Of a stretch of 64,000 nt of DNA, positions 4,455 through 60,125 are shown piece by piece; the stretch's first letter is position 1, and every line of letters starts with the position of its first letter. The position numbers and the translations under genes were made by a program. The stretch lies in contig CAZION010000006.1 of the NCBI GenBank assembly GCA_964540865.1, positions 10,367 to 74,366 on the forward strand, written 5' to 3'. The DNA is from an uncultured Victivallis sp. GTDB taxonomy: Bacteria; Verrucomicrobiota; Lentisphaeria; Victivallales; GWF2-50-93. The notes beneath the pieces were generated by a model. The model worked only from the letters and a program-made list of their open reading frames with translations. It did not search any database and was not told the DNA's origin.

Positions 4455-4877
4455 TCATTCGAGGGAACGCATCATCAGCTTGTAGTCTTTGCATCTCTCG
4501 TTGGGAGATACTGCTGAAAGAAAAAACTCCTCGCCGCCGATGACATCTTTTTCGATCCATGTCGTTGCGGAGGTGACAACTTCCATTCCGGCTTCATTGA
4601 ACCACTGGAACCTGTAGGCGAACTTGTAGTCTGATTTCCTTGTGTTCTTTATCGAAACTTGGACCTTCATCAGGCCGGTAGGAAGTTCCTGTTTGTCTAC
4701 GCTCACAGTCTGAAGCCTGTCCCCCAGCCCCTCATCCGTGATCACTCGTTTATTCCTGACAAAATCCTTTTCCATGACCTTGTCTGTATTTTCCACAGTG
4801 TTTACCGGAGCGTTGCAGGCGGGCATAAGAAGAACAATGGTAAGGGCTGGGATTGCAAGTAGTTTCATTGTATTCAT
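4455..4877 (-). CDS. YcfL/DUF1425-like lipoprotein
   Basis: Lipobox LMPAC; YRFQWFNEAGMEV and SAVSPN motifs. Confidence 0.78.
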   Translation of the reverse strand: MNTMKLLAIPALTIVLLMPACNAPVNTVENTDKVMEKDFVRNKRVITDEGLGDRLQTVSVDKQELPTGLMKVQVSIKNTRKSDYKFAYRFQWFNEAGMEVVTSATTWIEKDVIGGEEFFLSAVSPNERCKDYKLMMRSLE

Positions 4878-4947
4878 GGGGTTCACCTTTTTTTTAGTTG
4901 CAAAATATAATCACATTCTTCAAAGTCTAACAGTTGCTTGCCGGGAT

Positions 4948-6423
4948 TTATTCGATTTCAAACACCCGTACGCTCAGAGCTCCATTTCCGGCTTGGCGAA
5001 CATGTATGATTGCCCGCTTCTTTTCGACGGTGATTTCTACAGGTTCAGCTGAAACCATAGTTCCATCGTGAGATACAGCGCTCAGTTTTAATTTCCCATC
5101 GGAAGGGCGTGGGAGCTGGGCGACCTGATACTCACGCGGAAGTGTCTGCCAACAGCGGGTGTCGGCGGTATTGAATGTGTATTTGTAGACGCTGGTGCCA
5201 ACTACTGTCGCCACTACTGCGACGACCCCTCCGGCTCCGTTAGCCTGGCTGGCGGCCGTTATTGCGGCGGCGGAGGCTGCCTCCTTTATTATTGTCGATA
5301 TTACGAGCCGGGTTATCATTCCCGGAAAGATCTCCTTGTATTCCTGGGATACGACTGAATCCATGGCTGAAATGGTGGCTGTCTTAAATGAGTTTCCAGC
5401 GGAATCCGTGACCTCCAGCCCTCCAGTTGAGACAGGGAAATATTCCAGGTCCGAATATGCTATTCCTGAATAGCCGGTAGGCAGGACAATCTGGAATTTC
5501 TGCTCCCTGAATGCAGGCGCAATCCCGTTCTCGAATATTACAAAAACCGTGTTGGTGTCCAGCGGATAATTGAAAGGTTTGACTGCTGCCAGTTCCTCAG
5601 GGATCTTGTTGGCCATATATTGCGAAGTTGTAACGTAGTATTGCTGGATCAGTGGGTTTTCGGTGTCCATCTTATATAGGTTTCTGAAATCTACGTCGGC
5701 TTCGGGATAATTTTTGTCTATCAGATAGCGTATCCCTGACATGTAGGTCACGAACGGGTTCATGAGGTTCCCGTACGTCTTATTGGATTTGCTTTTCATC
5801 TCGTCAAAGGATTTCTTGAGTTCCGGATGCTCGTTTTCAAGCCCGTCGAAAGTGACCTGTTTTCCGGCCTTTTCCCCTTCCTTCTTGTTTGCCTCTTCCT
5901 GTTTCTTTATTTCGTCCTCGAATTTCTTTTCAGCCTCCTTCTGGCGTTCGTATGCGCGGCGCAACTCCACATTCGCGTCTGAGGTTTTTCCAAGGGCGAA
6001 ATAGTCGAGAGCCTTATAGGTGTTGAGAAGGATTCTATCGTAGTTGAATCCGCAGTAGGGCAGGGCGTTCTGGTTCGTGAACGCGGAACCTGTTTCCGCT
6101 CCAGCCTCCCTCGCATTGATTGCGGCGCGATCGTCGAAGTCTTTTATGAGTGCTTCGCATTTTTCAAAAGCTTCCAGGCTGCCTTTGTAATCGCCGATGT
6201 CAAATTTTATTTTCCCCTGTTCAAGCCTCCACATCAGTTCATCTCCGGTACCAGCCCTTTTATCGCTCATCAGGTCTACGAGCTTGACCGACTCTTCCAA
6301 GTTGCCTGAAGTGTAGGCTGTCATCAGCTCCTCCTTCTGCGACCGTGACGTGAAGACAGACGAACATCCTGTGGTGAGTACGAGGGATAGTACAAATAGA
6401 TATCTAATGTTTTTTATAGTCAT
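4948..6423 (-). CDS. COG3014-like TPR lipoprotein
   Basis: Lipobox LTTGC; ANVELRRA, ENGIAP, ADTRCWQTLP motifs; next to YcfL-like gene. Confidence 0.78.
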   Translation of the reverse strand: MTIKNIRYLFVLSLVLTTGCSSVFTSRSQKEELMTAYTSGNLEESVKLVDLMSDKRAGTGDELMWRLEQGKIKFDIGDYKGSLEAFEKCEALIKDFDDRAAINAREAGAETGSAFTNQNALPYCGFNYDRILLNTYKALDYFALGKTSDANVELRRAYERQKEAEKKFEDEIKKQEEANKKEGEKAGKQVTFDGLENEHPELKKSFDEMKSKSNKTYGNLMNPFVTYMSGIRYLIDKNYPEADVDFRNLYKMDTENPLIQQYYVTTSQYMANKIPEELAAVKPFNYPLDTNTVFVIFENGIAPAFREQKFQIVLPTGYSGIAYSDLEYFPVSTGGLEVTDSAGNSFKTATISAMDSVVSQEYKEIFPGMITRLVISTIIKEAASAAAITAASQANGAGGVVAVVATVVGTSVYKYTFNTADTRCWQTLPREYQVAQLPRPSDGKLKLSAVSHDGTMVSAEPVEITVEKKRAIIHVRQAGNGALSVRVFEIE

Positions 6424-44630: not shown

Positions 44631-44990
44631 CACAGGCCCTGGTCGCCAAAGGCGCTGCCATAGGCAGGTAAACATTCCTGCCTGTGTCTTGTGTTGGGAG
44701 TAGCACGGGCATCCTGCCTGTGTGGGTGTGTTCGGGTAGGAGATGGCAGACTTTAATTAGGCGGCTACGGACCGCAGCTCAGAACAATGGAATATCTAAT
44801 TATGGCGAGGGAAGTGAGGACAGAGAATAACGAAGAGGGAATTAAGTTGGAGTTCATCACGTGACCACGTTGGCACGTGGAACGTGACTCACGTGGCGGC
44901 TTTCCTGTCCGCCGTAGCATCTTAGCGAAGGCGGAAGCGTGTCTTGATTATCTTGGATATTGGACATTCCGTGCTGGACATTGGATATTC
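44627..44990. repeat. Hotspot of small repeats of four different kinds
   Basis: GTAG REPs (44627, 44700-44722), CACGT tract (44858-44895), palindrome (44904-44935), TTGGAYA heptamers (44953-44987). Confidence 0.7.
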
Positions 44991-49737: not shown

Positions 49738-51234
49738 TTATAAGCAATCCACCACATGCTTGTAATTTTTCACATAGTCCATGAAGTCAGAACTTCCCGA
49801 TTCAATGAATCCGCCTATTATGGTTTTGACAAACTCGCCGGCTTTTTCAGCGGGAATTTCTGTCAAGGGCGTAGACAGTTTCCTGTTTCGCAGATCTGCC
49901 CCCGTGTAGACTTTCAGGAAAGGCAGCATATTGCCGTCAATGCTCTTTTTCATGCCTTGGAATCCAAGAGCCGCCGCCGGATGACCGCCACAGGCGTTTG
50001 GACAGCCCGAAATCCTGATTGAATCCAGGATAACCGGCATGAGCTCCGCCTTTTTTTCAGGATACTTCGTGAACAGCGCATCCAACTCTTCGGCGATTGT
50101 TTTTGATATTGACTGAGAGTCCAGAATCCCTATTTTGCATACGGTTGCCCCGACACAGCATGTAAGAAGCCCCTTGAATGAATTTCCGGCGAAGTTCAGA
50201 CTTTTCAATCTGCTTCTCAGAGAAGGAATCGAGTCATTGGTTGCAGTCAAGTAAATGTCCTGACTTTGCGAAATTCGCAGATATATGCATCCCGCATTGC
50301 GGGCGGCATGACAGATTTCTTCGAAATCTGAAATACTAAGATTTCCGTTAGGGATGAAGCATTTGATTAATGATAAATTTCTCGCAAGTTCCGAATTTAT
50401 ATCTTTGTAACTTTTCTTGAAATCTTGAGCGGAACGCTCAAAATATTCAAGAAAAGTTTTCCTGAACTCGTCAGGCCCGACCTTCGCCGCGTAGTGGCGC
50501 AGACGGGCCTTGGCGCGGTTAGTCCGGTCCCCGTGGTCGTGGAAAAGTTCCAGCAAAGCCTTTATGCATTTCAGCAGATCTTTTTCCGGAAGGAAATCAA
50601 AGAGCTTTATTCCGACCATGCTTTCCCGTCCCATGCCGCCTGCGGCGTAGACGGTGAAGCCTTTTTGACCGTCTGCGCTTTTCGCAATAAACCCCATATC
50701 CTGCAAAACAGCCATGGAAGAGTCTTTTTCACAGCATGAGAATCCGAGCTTCAGTTTTCTGGGAAGCTGGAAGGCTTTTTTCTGATCAAACAGGAAATCA
50801 TTCGCGGCTTTCGCATATGGCTGGACATCGAAGATCGAATCAGATGAAATCCCGCTGTGCGGACATGCTACAGTATTCCTGTATGTGTCTCCTCCCCCGC
50901 CTTTGAAAGGAATTCCGCTTTCCGTCAACGATTTTACAACCGGATAAATCATATCAGGTTGAACATCATGGAACTGAATGTCCTGGCGTGTAGTCAGATG
51001 AATATATCCGACCTTGTTCGCCTTTGCGGTTTCAGATATTGTCCTTGCATCTGAGAGTGCCAGCTGCCCTCCTGTTATCCTTATCCTGAACATAAACTTC
51101 CCGTTGCTTTGTTCGTAGATTCCAAAAGGGGCTGTGAATTTCTTGTATTCAGCTGAATTTATCTTTCCCGAAACATACTCCTTCGATTTCAGCCTTATCA
51201 GTTCATATTTTTCTGTCCAGAATGTCTTATCCAT
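49738..51234 (-). CDS. Siroheme sulfite/nitrite reductase
   Basis: HLTTRQDIQFH, LPRKLK, RAKARLR, CVGATVC, ISGCPNACG; in the cys operon. Confidence 0.85.
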   Translation of the reverse strand: MDKTFWTEKYELIRLKSKEYVSGKINSAEYKKFTAPFGIYEQSNGKFMFRIRITGGQLALSDARTISETAKANKVGYIHLTTRQDIQFHDVQPDMIYPVVKSLTESGIPFKGGGGDTYRNTVACPHSGISSDSIFDVQPYAKAANDFLFDQKKAFQLPRKLKLGFSCCEKDSSMAVLQDMGFIAKSADGQKGFTVYAAGGMGRESMVGIKLFDFLPEKDLLKCIKALLELFHDHGDRTNRAKARLRHYAAKVGPDEFRKTFLEYFERSAQDFKKSYKDINSELARNLSLIKCFIPNGNLSISDFEEICHAARNAGCIYLRISQSQDIYLTATNDSIPSLRSRLKSLNFAGNSFKGLLTCCVGATVCKIGILDSQSISKTIAEELDALFTKYPEKKAELMPVILDSIRISGCPNACGGHPAAALGFQGMKKSIDGNMLPFLKVYTGADLRNRKLSTPLTEIPAEKAGEFVKTIIGGFIESGSSDFMDYVKNYKHVVDCL

Positions 51235-51273
51235 TGTTTCTCCTTGTTTGTAATTTTTTTCCATTTGGAAAAA

Positions 51274-53073
51274 TTATATGCAATAAGTCGGAATTATATC
51301 GGATTCAGTGAGCAACTGCATGGTTTTGTCAGTCGCCTCTTTTACAGGCGGATTCGCCGGTAAATTCAAATCCGTCTTGAATTTTGTAAAATAATTTTCC
51401 CCGATGTTGACTACAAGTATTTCATTCGGATAGTTCAGGAGTTTCAGTTTCTCGAGATCATATTCATCTGCATTGTCAATCGCCGTTATGAATACCAGTC
51501 CTGCATCTGTCATGATTCTTGCAAGTTCACCAATCCTTCGGATATGCTCATCCCTGTCCTGAAAGACTGCCTTCATGTCTGAATCGAGACCGCCGATGAG
51601 GTTGGTAATTCCAAGGAAGTAACTGTTGAGGCTCAGGTTGAAAAGACGTTGTTCAAGTGTTTTTGCAATTTCCCTCTTGCCTGTCCCCTTGTCTCCGGTG
51701 AAAAGAATGAATTTTCCCCTGTGATGGTTTCTGGCGGCTCGTGTCGCCGTGTCTATGAAACCGCGTTCCCATGAATACTCCCGCTTTTCTATGTGCTCGC
51801 GCAGGAGCGATTTGTCTTCATCTGCTTTTCCGGTGACAATTCCGCCTCCGGCGATTTCGTAGTTGTCGATAATCACAAACCTTCCCGTGTTTTCAATATC
51901 GCTTATCAGATCGAATGCGATCGGCTTGGATGTTTCAATCACGCATTCACCGACATCGTGCCGGTCGAGCTGCTGTTTCCCTTTGACAGAAGTCAGTTCC
52001 GATGCGTCAAGCACATTTGAAATTTCAACGAGTTCCGCGTTCGCCCGGGCCGCCGCCAGTTTGAGCCTGTATTTCTTGCCTTTTATGAACGGGGCTTTCC
52101 CCATCCAGAATATATTGACTTTCAGCCTTGAGGCGACCATGGTGGGAGTATCGCTTTTTTTGCACATGATATCGCCTGGATTTGCATAAATCTGCGTGGT
52201 AAGGGTGAACCCTGTCGCATGAGGCGCCTCAATTGAATTGCGTGGGGGATTGTTGAATCCCTCGATTGATTTGATCACCGACTCCTTGCCGGAAGGAAGG
52301 AAGACGACACTGTCTCCGACGTTGATGCTCCCGGTTTCTATGGAACCTGCAACTATCCGTCTTTCATCGTCCTGTTCGGTGAATTTGTAAATGTCCTGGA
52401 CCGGCATCCTGAACGCCTTGTTGGCATTGTCCGGTTTGAGTGCGAAAGTTTCCAGCTGTTCAAGGACTGAAGGCCCTTTGAACCATGGGATGTTTTTTGA
52501 ACTTCCGACAATGTTGTCTCCGAACCTTCCGCTTGCTGGAATAAAATTTGTCGCCACAACCCCGATGTTGCTGAGGAATTCAGAATACTCCCTTACAATG
52601 TTTTCATATACTTCTTTTCTGTAATCAGCAAGATCGAACTTGTTTACGATCACGGCAACCTGTCGGATGCCGAGCATGCTCAGGATATAGCCGTGCCGTT
52701 TCGAATTTTCCTGGATGCCCTCGTGTGCATCGATCACGAGAAGTGCGGCATCGGCACGGGCTGCGCCGGTCACCATGTTTTTCAGGAATTCAATGTGCCC
52801 TGGAGCATCAATTATCATGTATTTGCGGTTGGCGGTCTTGAAGAAGCATCGCGCCATGTCAATCGTTATTCCCTGACGCTGCTCGTTTTTGAGCGCGTCA
52901 AGGAGGAATGCGTATTCAAACGGTTTGGAATTGCGGCGGCAGTTCTCCTGTACCTGTTCGAGTTTTCCTTTCGGCAGTGAGTCCGTATCCGCCAGAAGCC
53001 GCCCGATAATCGTGCTCTTCCCATGATCCACATGGCCGACTATCACAATCTTCAGTAAATTATTTGTTTCCAT
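51274..53073 (-). CDS. cysN: Sulfate adenylyltransferase large subunit with degenerate APS-kinase-like C-domain
   Basis: [31 protein letters not shown]. Confidence 0.9.
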
Positions 53074-53127
53074 ATTATTTCTTTCCTTTTGTAGTGCTGA
53101 GTTATGAAAAATTGATGCAATTTTTTA

Positions 53128-54009
53128 TCACATGTATCCTTCTCTCCTCAGTGTCTCCAACCCGCCACCGTCATCCTTGTCCTGCGCCCTTCCGGACCGT
53201 TCTGCGATATTCGCAAACTTGCCGCTTTTGAGCTCGGCGATTATTTCTTTTACATTTTTAGCATTTGAATCAACCGGGGTTGTGCATGGGTAGCATCCCA
53301 GCGACCGGTATCTTTTCCCTTTGCCGTTGTCGAAATAAAGGGATGTTATCGGAATGTTTTCTTTTTCAATGTATTCCCATATGTTCAGCTCGGTCCAGTC
53401 GAGAAGGGGGTGGACCCTGATATGCGTGCCGGGCGCAAAATCAGTCTTATACTGGTTCCAGAGTTCCGGCGGCTGATCGTCAACGTTCCAGTCGCTCTGT
53501 TTGTCGCGAGGAGAGAAATAACGCTCTTTCGAACGGCTTCCCTCTTCATCTGCACGTACGCCGACAATGACTCCGGAATATGCGTCCTTGTTTGCGTCAG
53601 CTTCGAATTTGCCTGTATCGTGGTTCAGCCTGTAACGCGGCCATTCCCCGGAAAGTGTGTGTTTGAGAGCTTCACTTTTAAGGCTTTTGCAGCAGGTCAG
53701 GCGGTCAACCTTACCGTCAGGGAACGTGAGTTTCTGTTCAAGCACAGGCTTGTTCTGGCCGATTAGGAGTGAGAGCTTCCATTCCATTGCGATATTGTTC
53801 CTGTAGTCAATCATTTCAGGAATCTTGAACGCTGTGTCGATATGCATGAGGGGGAAGGGGACATGTCCGAAAAACGCCTTCCGAGCTAGCCATAGAAGGA
53901 CAGTGCTGTCCTTGCCTATCGACCACAGCATGACCAGGCTTTTAAATTCCCTGTATGCTTCGCGTAAGATATGCACACTCTGTGATTCCAGTGATTCAAG
54001 ATGATCCAT
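53128..54009 (-). CDS. cysD: Sulfate adenylyltransferase small subunit
   Basis: [54 protein letters not shown]. Confidence 0.93.
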
Positions 54010-54028
54010 TTTTTTATCCTTTCTTAAA

Positions 54029-54093
54029 GTCGTCAGTTGTTGGTCGCCAGTCATCAGTTTTTCCGAATGCCGTCGACCGAAGACAGTCGACTA
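54029..54093. repeat. Inverted GTC.../...GAC heptamer element overlapping the cysH stop codon
   Basis: gtcgtca gttgttg gtcgcca gtcatca ... cgtcgac cgaagac agtcgac ta. Confidence 0.7.
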
Positions 54094-54828
54094 TTTATTT
54101 ATTCGTGCCAGTTTCCCGTCCGCGACATGAAGTCCGCATTCCTTCTTTTCGGGTTCCTCCCACCACCATCTACCCGCACGTGCTGACTCATCCGCCTTCA
54201 CAGCTCTTGTGCAGGGAGCGCATCCGATACTTGGATATCCTTTATCGTGAAGCTTATTATAGGGAACGTTGTTTCCCCTAATATAGTTCCAGACATGCTC
54301 CTCAGTCCAGTCCGCAATCGGATTCAACTTCACCAGGGAGAAGTTCTCATCCCATTCAATCTTTTCAACTTTTGTGCGTGTGACGCTCTGTTCTCTGCGA
54401 AGACCGCATACCCAGGCATCAAGTTTCGAAAGGATCTTTCTCAGGGGCCTGAGCTTGCGAACTTCGCAGCATAGCTTTCTTTTCTCTATGCTTTCATAAA
54501 ACAGGTTTGGCCCGAATGAGTTTTCCATCTCTGATACATCCGTCGATTCAGGGAAAAGCACTTCGTATTTCAAACCGTATGTTTTCATGGTTTCAGTCAT
54601 GACATCGTACGTTTCCTGCGGGAGGCGTCCGGTATCGAGGGTGAAAATCCTTGCCCCTGGATGTATTTTCACAATCATATCGCTAAGAACCTGATCCTCG
54701 GCCCCGAGGCTTGATGACAGTGCGATTTTATCAGTTCCGAAGAAATCCAGCCCCCACCTTATGATTTCCTGAGGATCCTTCCCCCAAAAATCCTTATTTA
54801 GTTTTTCTATTTCCTCTTTGCTTATCAT
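54091..54828 (-). CDS. cysH: APS reductase (4Fe-4S type CysH)
   Basis: LDTGRL, CCEVRK, GLRREQS, SIGCAPCT, RAGRWWWE, KECGLH. Confidence 0.92.
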   Translation of the reverse strand: MISKEEIEKLNKDFWGKDPQEIIRWGLDFFGTDKIALSSSLGAEDQVLSDMIVKIHPGARIFTLDTGRLPQETYDVMTETMKTYGLKYEVLFPESTDVSEMENSFGPNLFYESIEKRKLCCEVRKLRPLRKILSKLDAWVCGLRREQSVTRTKVEKIEWDENFSLVKLNPIADWTEEHVWNYIRGNNVPYNKLHDKGYPSIGCAPCTRAVKADESARAGRWWWEEPEKKECGLHVADGKLARINK

Positions 54829-55265: not shown

Positions 55266-56642
55266 TTAAATCTTGAATTGTTCCGGATTAGAAAGGAAAT
55301 GCATGTGAATATAGCTGGCGATTACGTTTTTTATTCTAATCCCGGTTGCTGCCCATTTTGAATCTTTCCGCGTCCCTCTGATTTCGAATGCCGGCACGAT
55401 ATTCTTTGATGTGAATTCCGCCTCCGACCAATGGAACTCGTGTCCGCGAAAAACAGTCCCTTTTTCACCAAGGAAACTGCTCTGTTTCAGTTTTATCTCC
55501 CTATAACCAAGGCTGTGCAGCTTTGAGCCCATCTTGATCCTGCATGGAATGACTCCGCACATATTGTATTTCCTTCGCCCGCAGGAAATACTTTCGGATA
55601 GATACATGAAGCCGCCGCATTCGGCAAAGATGTGTCCGCCAGCCTTTGCGAAAGATGCAACAGACTGCAACATTGGTTTGTTTGCTGAAAGTTTCGCCGC
55701 AAATATTTCAGGAAATCCTCCGCCGATGTAAAGGAATTCTATTCCTGCTGGAAGTCCTTTGTCCTTCAACGGAGAGAAAAAGACAATTTCGAATCCGGCA
55801 TTTCTCAACGCATCAAAATTATCTTCATAATAGAAGTTGAACGCATCGTCAAGGGCGATTCCGATTTTCGGTCCTCGGTCGACAGCAGACAGTCGGCAGC
55901 TTGGGAATTTAATTCTTGTCTTTTCTTTATTGATACCTGACGACCAACAACCGACGACTGACGACTTTAATATCTTTTCGATATCAACATGTTTCTCGCA
56001 GATATCGGCAAGGGTGTTGAACCACTTCTCTTTCTTTCTGTTCTCGAATACCGGGACCAGGCCGAGATGCCGTTCTTGAAGTTTCAGCTTTTCATCACGT
56101 GGAATCCAACCGAGCAGGGGCGGCAGTCTGTCTCTCTTAAGCGCGATCTTCAGTATTTCAGCATGTCTCTCTGATGAAACATTGTTGGCGATCACTCCGA
56201 ATATTCTAATCTTTGGACAGTAACTGCAATATCCTTTGACAAGCGCTGAGATGCTGCCGGCCATACCCTTTGCATTGACAACGAGCAATACCGGGACATT
56301 CAAGGTTCTTGCCACATCAGCCGTGCTTCCTTCAAGTTTGCCCGGTTTTGCGCCGTCGAACAAACCCATTACACCCTCGATTACCGCACAGTCTTTATCC
56401 TTGATACCAGCTTCAAAAGAGTACGAAAGCGCACCCGGGACCATCCAGCTGTCGAGATTTCTTGAGGGAGTCCCGCAGGCGGCCTTATGAAAAGCTGTGT
56501 CAATGTAATCAGGTCCGCACTTGAACGGGGCAACCTTGACTCCGCGTCTTTTTAGAGCCCGCAGCAAACCAAGGGTAACCGTGGTTTTCCCCGCCCCTGA
56601 ATTGGTCCCGGCTATGCAGAATGCATAAAATTTATGTTCCAT
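55266..56642 (-). CDS. cbiA: Cobyrinate a,c-diamide synthase
   Basis: SGAGKTT, FKCGPDYID, EGVMGLFDG, ERHLGL, AFNFYY, GGGFPE, AECGG, GHEFH. Confidence 0.93.
   Translation of the reverse strand: MEHKFYAFCIAGTNSGAGKTTVTLGLLRALKRRGVKVAPFKCGPDYIDTAFHKAACGTPSRNLDSWMVPGALSYSFEAGIKDKDCAVIEGVMGLFDGAKPGKLEGSTADVARTLNVPVLLVVNAKGMAGSISALVKGYCSYCPKIRIFGVIANNVSSERHAEILKIALKRDRLPPLLGWIPRDEKLKLQERHLGLVPVFENRKKEKWFNTLADICEKHVDIEKILKSSVVGCWSSGINKEKTRIKFPSCRLSAVDRGPKIGIALDDAFNFYYEDNFDALRNAGFEIVFFSPLKDKGLPAGIEFLYIGGGFPEIFAAKLSANKPMLQSVASFAKAGGHIFAECGGFMYLSESISCGRRKYNMCGVIPCRIKMGSKLHSLGYREIKLKQSSFLGEKGTVFRGHEFHWSEAEFTSKNIVPAFEIRGTRKDSKWAATGIRIKNVIASYIHMHFLSNPEQFKI
55871..55965. repeat. Inverted heptamer element inside the cbiA interdomain linker
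   Basis: gtcctcg gtcgaca gcagaca gtcggca ... tgacgac caacaac cgacgac tgacgac. Confidence 0.75.
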
Positions 56643-57735
56643 GAATTTTATATCCCCTAAGAGTATAAAGCCTCCCGCCGCGCAAGACGGTTTGTGAATT
56701 TCCAATGATCACAAGTGTCGACATGTCTACGAATTCTTCCGGGAAATGATCAAGTGTCCCGCATACGGTGAGTTCATTGTCTCTGCCAGCATTTTTCACA
56801 ATTCCGAAATTTGTATCACCGCCTCTGGATTTCTTAATAGATTTGATTGCGAATGCAAGCAAATCTTTCCTGCTGTGGCTTCTTGGATTGTAGATGGCGC
56901 AGACCATGTCGGCTTCGGCAAGCAGCCTTATTCTTTTTATAATTGTCTTCTTCGGGGTCAGCAGATCGGACAGGCTGATTATTGCGAAATCATTCATGAG
57001 CGGGGCGCCAAGAGCGGAGGCCGCAGAGAGAGCCGCAGTTATTCCGGGAAGCGTTTCTATCTTTACTCCACGGTACTTTTCCTGTTCCGAAAGTTCGAGA
57101 AGAAGCCCGGACATGCCATATATCCCGGCATCTCCGGAACAGACTACCGATACGTTTTTGCCTGAAGCGGCTTCGTCAAGAGCCAGACTGCATCGTTCTA
57201 TTTCATGGGTCATGCCAGTGGCGATTCTCTTCTTCTTCCCGATGAGTGACGGGATTTGTTCAAGGTATTTCCCATAGCCGGCCACAGTGTCGGAAGCCAG
57301 GATTGCGGATTTCGCATCTTCCGTTATCTGGTCAATTGCGCCAGAACCTATTCCGATTGCAGTGAGAGTTCCCCTTGCTTTGACAGGTTCCGCTATGGCG
57401 ATGGTTATTTTTCCCCCGTGAATCGACTTCGGAAAAATTATCCTACCTCCTGCGGCGATAGCTGCAGCTTCAGATACGCTGTGCGAATCGATGTGCTTTT
57501 TGACTTTTTCCGAAGGGGAGGGGACTTCTATCTTGGACAGTTCCTCCGGAGTGAAGAAGACAATCTTTATTCCTTTGGACTCGGCATATTCAAGCAGCCC
57601 TTTTTCATTGCACTTGAGCGTGCAGGTTGCGATAAGGCTGATGCTTTTTCCGCCCAGTACATTCTCGATCGCCTTTGAGATTTCATCGCAGGTGGTCCCC
57701 CGCCTGCATCCTAAACCTATTATGTGTTTCTTCAT
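56632..57735 (-). CDS. cbiH: CbiG C-terminal domain fused to precorrin-3B C17-methyltransferase
   Basis: IIGLGCRRG...SVSEAAA; then GIGSG, SGDAGIYGM, PGITA, DFAIISLSD, YNPRS, TLRGY. Confidence 0.9.
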   Translation of the reverse strand: MKKHIIGLGCRRGTTCDEISKAIENVLGGKSISLIATCTLKCNEKGLLEYAESKGIKIVFFTPEELSKIEVPSPSEKVKKHIDSHSVSEAAAIAAGGRIIFPKSIHGGKITIAIAEPVKARGTLTAIGIGSGAIDQITEDAKSAILASDTVAGYGKYLEQIPSLIGKKKRIATGMTHEIERCSLALDEAASGKNVSVVCSGDAGIYGMSGLLLELSEQEKYRGVKIETLPGITAALSAASALGAPLMNDFAIISLSDLLTPKKTIIKRIRLLAEADMVCAIYNPRSHSRKDLLAFAIKSIKKSRGGDTNFGIVKNAGRDNELTVCGTLDHFPEEFVDMSTLVIIGNSQTVLRGGRLYTLRGYKIHGT

Positions 57736-57747
57736 TTTTCTCCGTTT

Positions 57748-57853
57748 GTAGTAGCGCAATTTATTGCGCGTTCTTTTCTGTTTGTAGTAGGAGAATTTAT
57801 TCGCCGTTCTTCAATTGATGTGATCAAGAACGCGCAATAAATTGTGCTACTAC
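57748..57853. repeat. REP module (two forward REPs, one reverse) left of RAYT
   Basis: gtagtagcgcaatttattgcgc, gtagtaggagaatttattcgcc, gcgcaataaattgtgctactac. Confidence 0.88.
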
Positions 57854-57860
57854 AAGCTGA

Positions 57861-58451
57861 TTAATCATCCCACCCTTTTCCATAACCAAGGACTGGATAA
57901 CTTTCCCATAACTGTACCAGTTTATCTCTTCCATGTTCTGATATATGTCCGTGTATGCTTGAGGTTTCCCAATCCAAAGCATTTTTTACCTGATGGTGTT
58001 TTACCGGATTTGAATTGATATAATTTACAGAAGCCCAGAAATGATTTGAGTTCCTTATTTTTCTATCAGAATACCTAAACCATACCACTCTTTTCATTGT
58101 TTTGTCCTCTTTGTTCCATTCAAAAGCTGTTTTCCTGTGTAATTTCGAGATAGTTTTGGAAAAATCTTTTAAATTCACTTTTGCAAGAAAATGATAATGG
58201 TTTGGAAGAATACACCAGGCAAAAATATTCCCAATGGTGGATATTTCGTTCAACATCATAAATTCAAAACTTTTTCTTCTTTCGGCTGTATTCATGATGT
58301 TTTTGTGCTCGAAAATGGAGGCGGTTAAAATATAGGTTTTAATGATATCATCAAAAAAATGGGGAGGTTCGTGAAGAGGCAATTGTGAAAACTTGCGGTA
58401 GTTAAGCACATCTTGTTTTTGAATTTCATTTAATTTTCTATATTTATACAT
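57861..58451 (-). mobile_element. REP-associated tyrosine transposase (RAYT, Y1 HUH)
   Basis: AWCILPNHYHFL (HUH), DRKIRN, NYINSNPVKH (catalytic Tyr), WETSS; flanked by GTAG REPs. Confidence 0.9.
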
Positions 58452-58461
58452 TTTCGCCTTG

Positions 58462-58567
58462 CCGGTAGCACAATTCTCTGCGCGTTCTTTTCTGTTGGTA
58501 GTAGGCGAATTTATTCGCCGTTCTCCACCTGGGTCTAGGAATGACGCGCAATAAATTGCGCTACTAC
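58462..58567. repeat. REP module right of RAYT, direct repeat of 57748-57853
   Basis: Same length and layout at an offset of 714 bp. Confidence 0.88.
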
Positions 58568-60069
58568 GAACGGAGCCTTAACACGGGCATAAATGTTGAT
58601 TCCATTTTCGTGTTAAATACAACCGCACCGCAGAATTTTCCTGTTTTTAACTTGCCGGAGCTAGATATGTGAATAATATTCGTTTTAGAATCGTAATGCT
58701 TGCGGTATACCCCCTCCGGCACCATCAATCCAATTCTCTTCCCTTCAAGAAGCATAGAGTTCAGCGTCTTTATCATTTCCGGGTTTTCGACTTTCCAGCC
58801 TTCAATTGCGGCCATTTCATCAAACGCCATCAGGTTCTGGACATCTGTTGCTGTAGTGATTACCGCCTGTCCACCTAAGGCTTCGGCTGCGAACTTCGCA
58901 AGCCTGTTCGCCCCGCCTATGTGCCCGCTGAGCAGGCTTACGGCATAATTACCTTTCTGGTCACAGACTATCACTGCTGGGTCGGACGTTTTGCTGTTGA
59001 TGAATTTCGAAATCTTCCTCACAACTATTCCTGTCGCCATTATGAATATGTGACCGGCGAATCCTTTCCAGTTCCGGCTTAGGGTTTCGTCAAACCCGCC
59101 TTCCTTAAAAAATTCCGTGACGGAATTTTTAACCGATTTACCTTTAAACCTTTCAGGCATGAAAAGTGTTCCACCTTTTATGCTGGGTAAAAGCTTGTGG
59201 GCTGTTTCAATGCCTTCGGCTGTTATTGCATAAATTGCGATCTTCCCCTGAAAATCTCCGGTTCTCCTGTTCTCCGATTCTCCGATTCGTTCTTCAACGG
59301 CTTTCCGGTACCCGTGTGTGAATGCAGCATCATAGAGGAGAGACTTCCCGCATTTTTTCCTGTCAAGTGCGTCTCCGACAATTATCATCGCCTGGCGTTC
59401 TATGCCAGCTTTCGTCATTTTTCCTGAAATATTGGAAAGATCGCCCCTGACTATTTTTTCTTCCTTCCACGAGGCCCTGTAAACTACTTGGGCCGGTGTT
59501 TCGGGAGAATAGCCACCGCGTATCAGTTCGGCAGTAAGATTTTTTACGCCTCCTGCGGATAGGAATATGCACATTGTCGCACCGTGTTTTGCGAGGTTCG
59601 CAATTTCCTGTCCGTGTGGAACGGGGGTTCGCCCTGCCTGCCGTGTAAGGATTACAGTTTGCGATACGCCGGGCGCGGTGAGTTCCGTTTTAAGGGCTGC
59701 TGCGGAAGCGAACACTGAACTTACGCCGGGGATGACTTCATATGGGATTTTGAACTTGTCCAGCTCAGTCATCTGTTCAGCAATGGCGCCATAAATTGCA
59801 GGGTCTCCGGTATGAAGTCTTACTACTCTTTTTTCAGAGAGATACGCCTCTTTCATCAATTTTACAATTTCCTGCAAGGAAATTATCGCACTGTCGACTG
59901 TTCTGCATTTGCTTCCTGCGTATTTCAAAATCTCAGGGTTGACAAGTGAGCCGGCGTAAACGATCAGATCTGCCTCCTGTATTGCTTTCAGGCATCGCAA
60001 TGTTATCAGGTCTGGAGCCCCGGGGCCGGCACCTGCAAATATTATTTTGTGATTTGATGATTTTTTCAT
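58564..60069 (-). CDS. cbiF: Precorrin-4 C11-methyltransferase fused to CbiG N-terminal and mid domains
   Basis: GAGPGAPDLIT, YAGSLV, RLHTGDP, LYDAAFTHGYR; then MATGIVVR, DPAVIV, LLSGHIGGAN, VITTATD. Confidence 0.92.
   Translation of the reverse strand: MKKSSNHKIIFAGAGPGAPDLITLRCLKAIQEADLIVYAGSLVNPEILKYAGSKCRTVDSAIISLQEIVKLMKEAYLSEKRVVRLHTGDPAIYGAIAEQMTELDKFKIPYEVIPGVSSVFASAAALKTELTAPGVSQTVILTRQAGRTPVPHGQEIANLAKHGATMCIFLSAGGVKNLTAELIRGGYSPETPAQVVYRASWKEEKIVRGDLSNISGKMTKAGIERQAMIIVGDALDRKKCGKSLLYDAAFTHGYRKAVEERIGESENRRTGDFQGKIAIYAITAEGIETAHKLLPSIKGGTLFMPERFKGKSVKNSVTEFFKEGGFDETLSRNWKGFAGHIFIMATGIVVRKISKFINSKTSDPAVIVCDQKGNYAVSLLSGHIGGANRLAKFAAEALGGQAVITTATDVQNLMAFDEMAAIEGWKVENPEMIKTLNSMLLEGKRIGLMVPEGVYRKHYDSKTNIIHISSSGKLKTGKFCGAVVFNTKMESTFMPVLRLRS
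59255..59288. repeat. 8-nt-period micro-array in the CbiF-CbiG linker
   Basis: tctccggt tctcctgt tctccgat tctccgat tc. Confidence 0.65.
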
Positions 60070-60102: not shown

Positions 60103-60125
60103 CACAGGCAAGATGCCTGTGTTAC
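60103..60125 (-). repeat. REP-like hairpin overlapping the cbiET stop codon
   Basis: Minus strand gtaacacaggcatcttgcctgtg; same family as 44700-44722. Confidence 0.7.

Follow-up and report, generated by a model that had tools for sequence, protein, structure and literature searches.

A REP-RAYT-REP cassette at the junction of a two-part cbiG in a Victivallales genome

The cassette that lies between the two parts of cbiG in the window (the whole stretch of 64,000 nt analysed here, from the genome coded G000; relatives are coded G### and loci L###) most likely did not cut the gene but entered a gene boundary that already existed, where the TAG in its GTAG took the place of the native stop codon, a reading to which we give a probability of about 0.85. 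We favour a landing in an existing gap because relatives without the element are split at the same point. The earlier note on this DNA had read the arrangement as a continuous fusion cut by an element whose ends supply a stop codon and a ribosome-binding site (RBS). Several parts of that reading stood, namely the stop codon inside the REP, the triple fusions in distant relatives and a GGAG motif found only at REP-A-type junctions; the part that fell is the cutting of the gene by the element. An element-made fission at the window locus is not supported and the locus is no shown case of one, which removes an attractive but unsupported example of such an event.

The junction genes and the REP-RAYT locus

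The junction genes are all encoded on the minus strand, and the features of the locus are as follows.

60103..60125, minus strand: single REP-B, whose GTAA is the stop (60124-60122) of the intact cbiET, the next gene upstream; it serves as an internal control
58564..60069, minus strand: cbiF-cbiG(N,mid) fusion gene, 501 aa; TIGR01465 above cutoff, PF11760, PF11761
58465..58571, no strand assigned: REP module bordering the RAYT gene at its 5' end, with REP-Ay on the minus strand (58567-58546), REP-Az on the plus strand (58498-58519) and a decayed third REP near 58465-58489
57861..58451, minus strand: RAYT-A (REP-associated tyrosine transposase), 196 aa; HUH H85-Y86-H87, Y144-x-x-x-N-P
57744..57857, no strand assigned: REP module bordering the RAYT gene at its 3' end, with REP-Ay on the minus strand (57853-57832), REP-Az on the plus strand (57784-57805) and REP-Ay on the plus strand (57748-57769)
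57740..57743, minus strand: GGAG, likely RBS for cbiG(C)-cbiH; it lies immediately beyond the REP consensus, with four bases between it and the ATG
56632..57735, minus strand: fusion of cbiG(C) with cbiH, 367 aa; encodes a CobE-like CbiG_C and a precorrin-3B C17-methyltransferase; TIGR01466 above cutoff

The upstream ORF carries the TP_methylase (CbiF), CbiG_N and CbiG_mid domains, and the downstream ORF, which starts with the ATG at 57735, carries CbiG_C and CbiH. The N, mid and C domains of CbiG were all found above cutoff (PF11760 and PF11761 upstream, PF01890 downstream), and these two parts are the only CbiG matches in G000. A TTG start at 57759 for cbiG(C)-cbiH was discarded because the homologues begin at the ATG. 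The upstream protein ends in PVLRLRS and, as the earlier note had it, its stop codon (TAG, 58566-58564) lies inside the GTAG of the REP, with a second in-frame TAG behind. When 57700-58700 was scanned for promoters and terminators, one site of each kind came up (expectation 3.0 and 0.9), which amounts to nothing. After the cobalamin genes, on the same strand, the window holds at 49738-54828 (minus) what we take, by the look of the sequences, to be a sulfate-assimilation-like set (reductase-like, CysN-like, CysD-like and CysH-like).

The RAYT gene lies between two direct repeats (57751-57860 and 58465-58574; 110 nt, 80% identity, 714 apart) whose outer ends extend into an inverted repeat (57740-57771 and 58544-58575; 32 nt, 97%), and this layout had been described correctly from the letters alone. 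Both modules consist of three GTAG-tagged REPs each; the conserved REP-A family boundary of the 5'-side module is at 58571, and the 3'-side module is predicted to fold into one long hairpin (-47.2 kcal/mol, z -7.65). A search for copies of the module, which had been suggested as a check, counted 107 REP-A copies in all, dispersed through G000 in 70 clusters, 36 of them inverted doublets. A second family, REP-B, has 83 copies, and a further REP-B-like copy is seen in the window at 44700-44722 (plus). The REP-A consensus reaches exactly four bases (GTTN) outside GTAG, and the flanks beyond are T-rich and variable. Watson-Crick pairing nevertheless extends at least 3 bases past the consensus in 5 of the 36 REP-A doublets, so the extra four bases of the outer inverted repeat at the window locus are not extraordinary. 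As to an insertion rule for REP-A, the lone candidate paralogous empty sites in G000 concern a REP doublet nested in another repeat family and are too diverged for base precision, and the REP-A loci of six relatives mapped onto G000 are either shared insertions or too diverged to fix the rule. Two REP-A sites may be mentioned: at G000:C122:19226-19288 a REP-A doublet has been inserted into a spacer belonging to a different palindromic repeat family, of which many copies are empty, and at an orthologous intergenic site a REP-A/REP-B hybrid in G009 (L064, G009:C82 near 9508) corresponds to a REP-A doublet in G000 (G000:C6:75344-75402), making this a second place where the two families alternate.

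RAYT-A matched a single NCBIfam model, NF047646 (E 2.4e-19; 69.6 bits, under the cutoff of 80), and scored 18.7 bits against PF01797 (cutoff 23). It aligned with E. coli TnpA-REP 4ER8 (E 1.2e-6), with H85-Y86-H87 and Y144...N148-P149 matched; HUH together with a catalytic Y-x-x-x-N-P is the class 2 signature in the available part of PMC6006769. Other TnpA-REP members cleave single-stranded REP DNA at guide-selected dinucleotides, as described in the accessible text of PMC8266576. The search for further RAYT copies, also proposed in the earlier note, found none besides RAYT-A in G000; all other matches, the next paralogue included, are 39% identical or lower, and a multicopy element of the IS200/IS605 type is ruled out on that ground. 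Among 18 genomes, orthologues of at least 75% identity occur only at the same site, in G009 (83%) and G014 (76%). The dN/dS of RAYT-A against these two relatives was 0.10-0.11, a rough value given that dS is near saturation, and its synonymous divergence falls within the range of its neighbours, consistent with inheritance in place. The nearest named records carry Victivallales or Lentisphaerae MAG titles. On the tested features, the locus is a REPIN-RAYT locus.

The split among relatives and its polarity

Twenty-eight loci were parsed for their cbiF/cbiG/cbiH layout. The arrangement of the window, cbiF-cbiG(N,mid) and cbiG(C)-cbiH, was seen at 11 of them, and a continuous CbiG with a separate CbiH at another 11. 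At two loci (G014 and G048) cbiG(C)-cbiH is a separate ORF and the parsed locus does not include the upstream half; the half of G014 was later joined up, and that of G048 was looked for and not found in a genome that is 72% complete, where the short contig with cbiG(C)-cbiH has no cbiF-cbiG(N) near it (L241). A three-ORF split at the same boundary was present at two loci (G018, L042, and G044, L044) and also in G057 (L242), and the remaining two loci were unclassified at that parsing (G249, and G041, later found continuous). In G050 (L239) CbiG_C is present with the upstream half undetected. Arcobacteraceae-type and other distant loci, which have an intact CbiG and a separate CbiH, were set aside as having no bearing on the split.

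Within the genus-level clade there are 11 distinct junctions (9 of the 10 genus genomes match, plus G014 and the metagenome locus L107). RAYT-A occupies three of these (G000, G009, G014) and REP-A-type remnants two (G001, G007); an unrelated RAYT-B with REP-B ends is found at two (G005, G006) and a RAYT-B remnant at one (G004). Three junctions are empty (G008, G003, L107), and all three are split. The search among relatives for an empty site with a continuous ORF, the check put forward with the original claim, accordingly yielded none. In G008, whose upstream protein ends in PVLRLKK, and in G003, the stop codon overlaps the next start without any element, as it does outside the genus clade in G013 (same family) and G027 (another family), and L107 has a gap of 7 bases. 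These five element-free splits at the same boundary are the outcome that the earlier note had named as refuting its claim that the element cut a continuous cbiG.

In trees of CbiG_C plus CbiH, the genus clade has the pair G013 and G048 as its sister (support 100/99-100), G013 being a long branch of odd composition. The junction states are interleaved on the tree: the REP-A-type rows as one clade were rejected (p-AU 4e-46), as were the occupied rows (3e-7), and the RAYT-B rows as one clade were not (p 0.08); L107, which is empty, is sister to G014, which carries RAYT-A. G008 has 10 REP-A copies and G003 has 6, and a search for a RAYT-A orthologue found none in either (best 52% and 49%); their empty sites could therefore be losses. 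Since losses inside the genus are possible, the polarity rests mainly on G013 and G048, plus the separate splits in G027, G018, G044 and G057. In G013, a genome 91% complete, no RAYT-A match was found at E 1e-8.

The best 22 near-length homologues (50-100% identity) are all CbiG_C-CbiH proteins of 365-402 aa. The CbiF-CbiG-CbiH triple fusions that the earlier note had supposed do exist in distant relatives (85 of the 120 long proteins listed, and also G278 and G280), and among the listed matches they reach at most 47% identity to the downstream protein. No fused close homologue was found, and the CbiG_C and CbiH trees resolved no triple fusion as sister of the split clade. Intact fusions are hydrophobic at positions -10 and -8 from the glycine of G-x-G-C (79/79 and 78/79) and keep a 7-residue linker (78-79 of 79). 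When the element is removed at its consensus boundary, the frame is restored in G000, G009 and G001, which counts as one inherited event with a 1-in-3 chance of occurring; the restored linker has 9 residues (G000, G009) or 11 (G001), that is, 2 or 4 too many compared with intact fusions. Leaving two boundary bases (G and C) behind gives instead a stop that overlaps the start, which is the arrangement of the empty relatives. If the element is taken out at the TAAT boundary, the three RAYT-B junctions come out split, and in two of these the stop overlaps the start.

These data allow the alternatives to be weighed. At the root of the genus, an ancestor of RAYT-A might have interrupted a fusion that was continuous until then, providing stop codon and RBS, with the empty genus sites being later losses and the splits of G013, G048 and G027 independent. 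The restored frame, the GGAG at all five REP-A-type junctions, the persistence of REP-A copies in genomes without a detected RAYT-A orthologue, the independent splits of the same boundary elsewhere (G018, G044, G057) and the very existence of triple fusions speak for it; we nevertheless regard it as improbable, in view of the separate cbiG(C)-cbiH already present in the sister pair (support 100/99), the excess of 2-4 residues in the restored linker, the failure to find a fused close homologue and the three RAYT-B junctions that read as split. Still harder to sustain is an older, vanished REP or RAYT insertion that split cbiG in the common ancestor of the split clade, the present cassettes being later occupants. 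RAYT-like genes are indeed plentiful in the family (matches in 16 of 18 genomes, up to 7 in each) and the site has been occupied repeatedly, but a REP hairpin is not apparent by eye at the junctions of G008, G003, G013 and G027, the sole GTAG in the G013 junction region sits in coding sequence, the G013 overlap looks like a plain frameshift-type fission, and G018, G044 and G057 are split with no element at the junction. A disrupted cbiG pseudogene, or an error of assembly, is scarcely credible as an account of the locus, despite an assembly of 342 contigs and run contigs that break at REPs, as the same arrangement recurs in G009 and G014, both parts have dN/dS of 0.09-0.18, and G000 has no other CbiG.

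According to the favoured reading, insertion into an existing boundary, the fission would be the older event, dating from the common ancestor with G013 and G048 or from a time before it, and possibly started from a triple fusion. The REP-RAYT-REP cassette would later have entered this boundary, exchanging the native stop for the TAG of GTAG and ending the stop/start coupling; an independent GGAG RBS would therefore have been acquired with the insertion or selected soon after. Solo-REP alleles may derive from recombination between the direct-repeat modules, or from decay.

Stop codon and ribosome-binding site

The TAG in GTAG ends the upstream ORF in G000, G009, G014 and G001. Capture of a stop codon by a REP is routine in G000 and already published. 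Outer ends of REPs provide the stop in 9 of 186 cases in this genome (4/105 for REP-A and 5/81 for REP-B), one of the four REP-A captures ending a 124-codon ORF that is possibly no gene, and at 4 further REP-B outer ends a TAA stands at the immediate flank. In cbiET, the control at the locus itself, the REP-B stop adds two codons compared with relatives that do not have that REP. GTAG REP termini often give a TAG stop to flanking ORFs, according to the available part of PMC3733652, whose Additional files list REP-overlapped ORFs.

Because the REP-A consensus stops four bases beyond GTAG, the TAG is inside the element and the GGAG outside the family consensus. We infer that GGAG acts as the RBS of cbiG(C)-cbiH; in the predicted fold its last three bases are unpaired, just past the hairpin. 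It precedes the start at all 5 REP-A-type junctions, that of G007 with its decayed REP among them, against 0 of 11 others, and being confined to these junctions it may have arrived with that type of insertion. As far as the sequences go, it could have come either as a flank with the REP-A-type insertion or by selection after the stop/start coupling was lost. On the earlier claim that the element brings the RBS the observations point both ways: the motif does keep to REP-A-type junctions, but it lies outside the REP consensus, and its complement stands beside only 3 of the 107 REP-A copies, two of the three at the window locus.

RAYT turnover, the two-part CbiG and known systems

In our view the main interest of the locus lies in the turnover, at a single site, of two RAYT subfamilies. 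RAYT-A and RAYT-B are about 34-36% identical over 75 residues, and the presence of two unrelated subfamilies at nearly the same position in one genus suggests that whole cassettes may relocate. Tentatively, the cbiG split point may be a recurrent landing pad into which RAYT-A and RAYT-B cassettes each moved in whole and took over the stop, the A type also bringing the RBS; in this scheme, and with the same reserve, the A-type RBS might have freed cbiG(C)-cbiH from stop/start coupling. If true, the landing pad would be comparative evidence that RAYT genes relocate themselves; the available text of a recent review states that self-relocation of RAYT genes has not been shown. Logan contigs from four runs contain no joint that skips the cassette, an uninformative result since these contigs break at REPs and drop rare variants; among the public runs listed as carrying the locus none is an RNA run.

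Further arrangements were noticed at these junctions and across the family. In G005 (L034, junction 2211-2971) the RAYT-B ORF reads through the downstream REP, its stop overlapping the ATG of cbiG(C)-cbiH, to which RAYT-B would be translationally coupled. In G001 (L035, junction 4857-4998) there is a nested composite, in which an outer pair of two REP-A-like subtypes surrounds a third GTAG-tagged doublet, and the left REP matches the type beside other RAYT paralogues (L181, L193, L205). Many RAYT subfamilies are represented at the family loci L176-L205 and L247-L263, each with its own REP type, some without the GTAG tag. Open frames of 420-1439 codons enclose some of the RAYT-B-like matches (G013:C2 near 197865), which points to fusions, and outside the window, at G000:C6:80180-80890 (L259), a RAYT-B-like sequence is in two pieces, the C-terminal part before the N-terminal one.

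Against six relatives, both CbiG parts gave dN/dS values of 0.09-0.18, which are rough because dS is near saturation. As judged from substitution ratios, purifying selection on the CbiG parts and on the RAYT is shown, and the supposition of the earlier note that the split is tolerated looks right. We infer that the two CbiG parts come together again in trans, with the methyltransferase fused to each part as its carrier; the C domain of the downstream ORF matches free-standing CobE-type structures. A natural two-piece CbiG would mark a usable domain boundary in an enzyme of the B12 ring-contraction stage. Our literature search returned nothing specific on fusion or split architectures of CbiG, CobE and CbiH, nor on element-made gene fission; it left most subscription papers outside its coverage, and the split may already be published.

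The locus can be compared with four known systems. The downstream ORF begins exactly with the CbiG C-terminal domain, which is a free protein in the structures of stand-alone CobE (PF01890; PDB 2w6k, 3by5), whereas here the C domain is fused to CbiH, and the N and mid domains to CbiF. The triple fusions (Akkermansia, Lentimonas and Lentisphaeria names; G278, G280) have the same domain order as the two window ORFs, but form one polypeptide, are at most 47% identical and are not resolved as sister of the split clade. With the GTAG-tagged REPs that give stop codons (Di Nocera, De Gregorio and Rocco 2013, PMC3733652), the locus shares a TAG of the tag that ends the upstream ORF; relative to the available part of that paper there is no mechanistic difference, the upstream ORF being here the first half of a split enzyme. 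Finally, as a REP-RAYT locus it is of the standard kind, though from a phylum that has been little studied. As in REPIN-RAYT systems or REPtrons (E. coli TnpA-REP 4ER8; class 2 TnpA-Y1, PMC6006769; 10.1101/2021.07.10.451892, as far as the accessible text of these sources goes), the HUH/Y1 transposase gene is single copy, GTAG-tagged REP doublets flank it and are dispersed genome-wide, and it is under purifying selection and has stayed at one intergenic site in relatives. It differs from them in lying in Victivallales/Lentisphaeria with a score under the NF047646 cutoff, and in that other genomes of the genus have an unrelated RAYT at this intergenic site.
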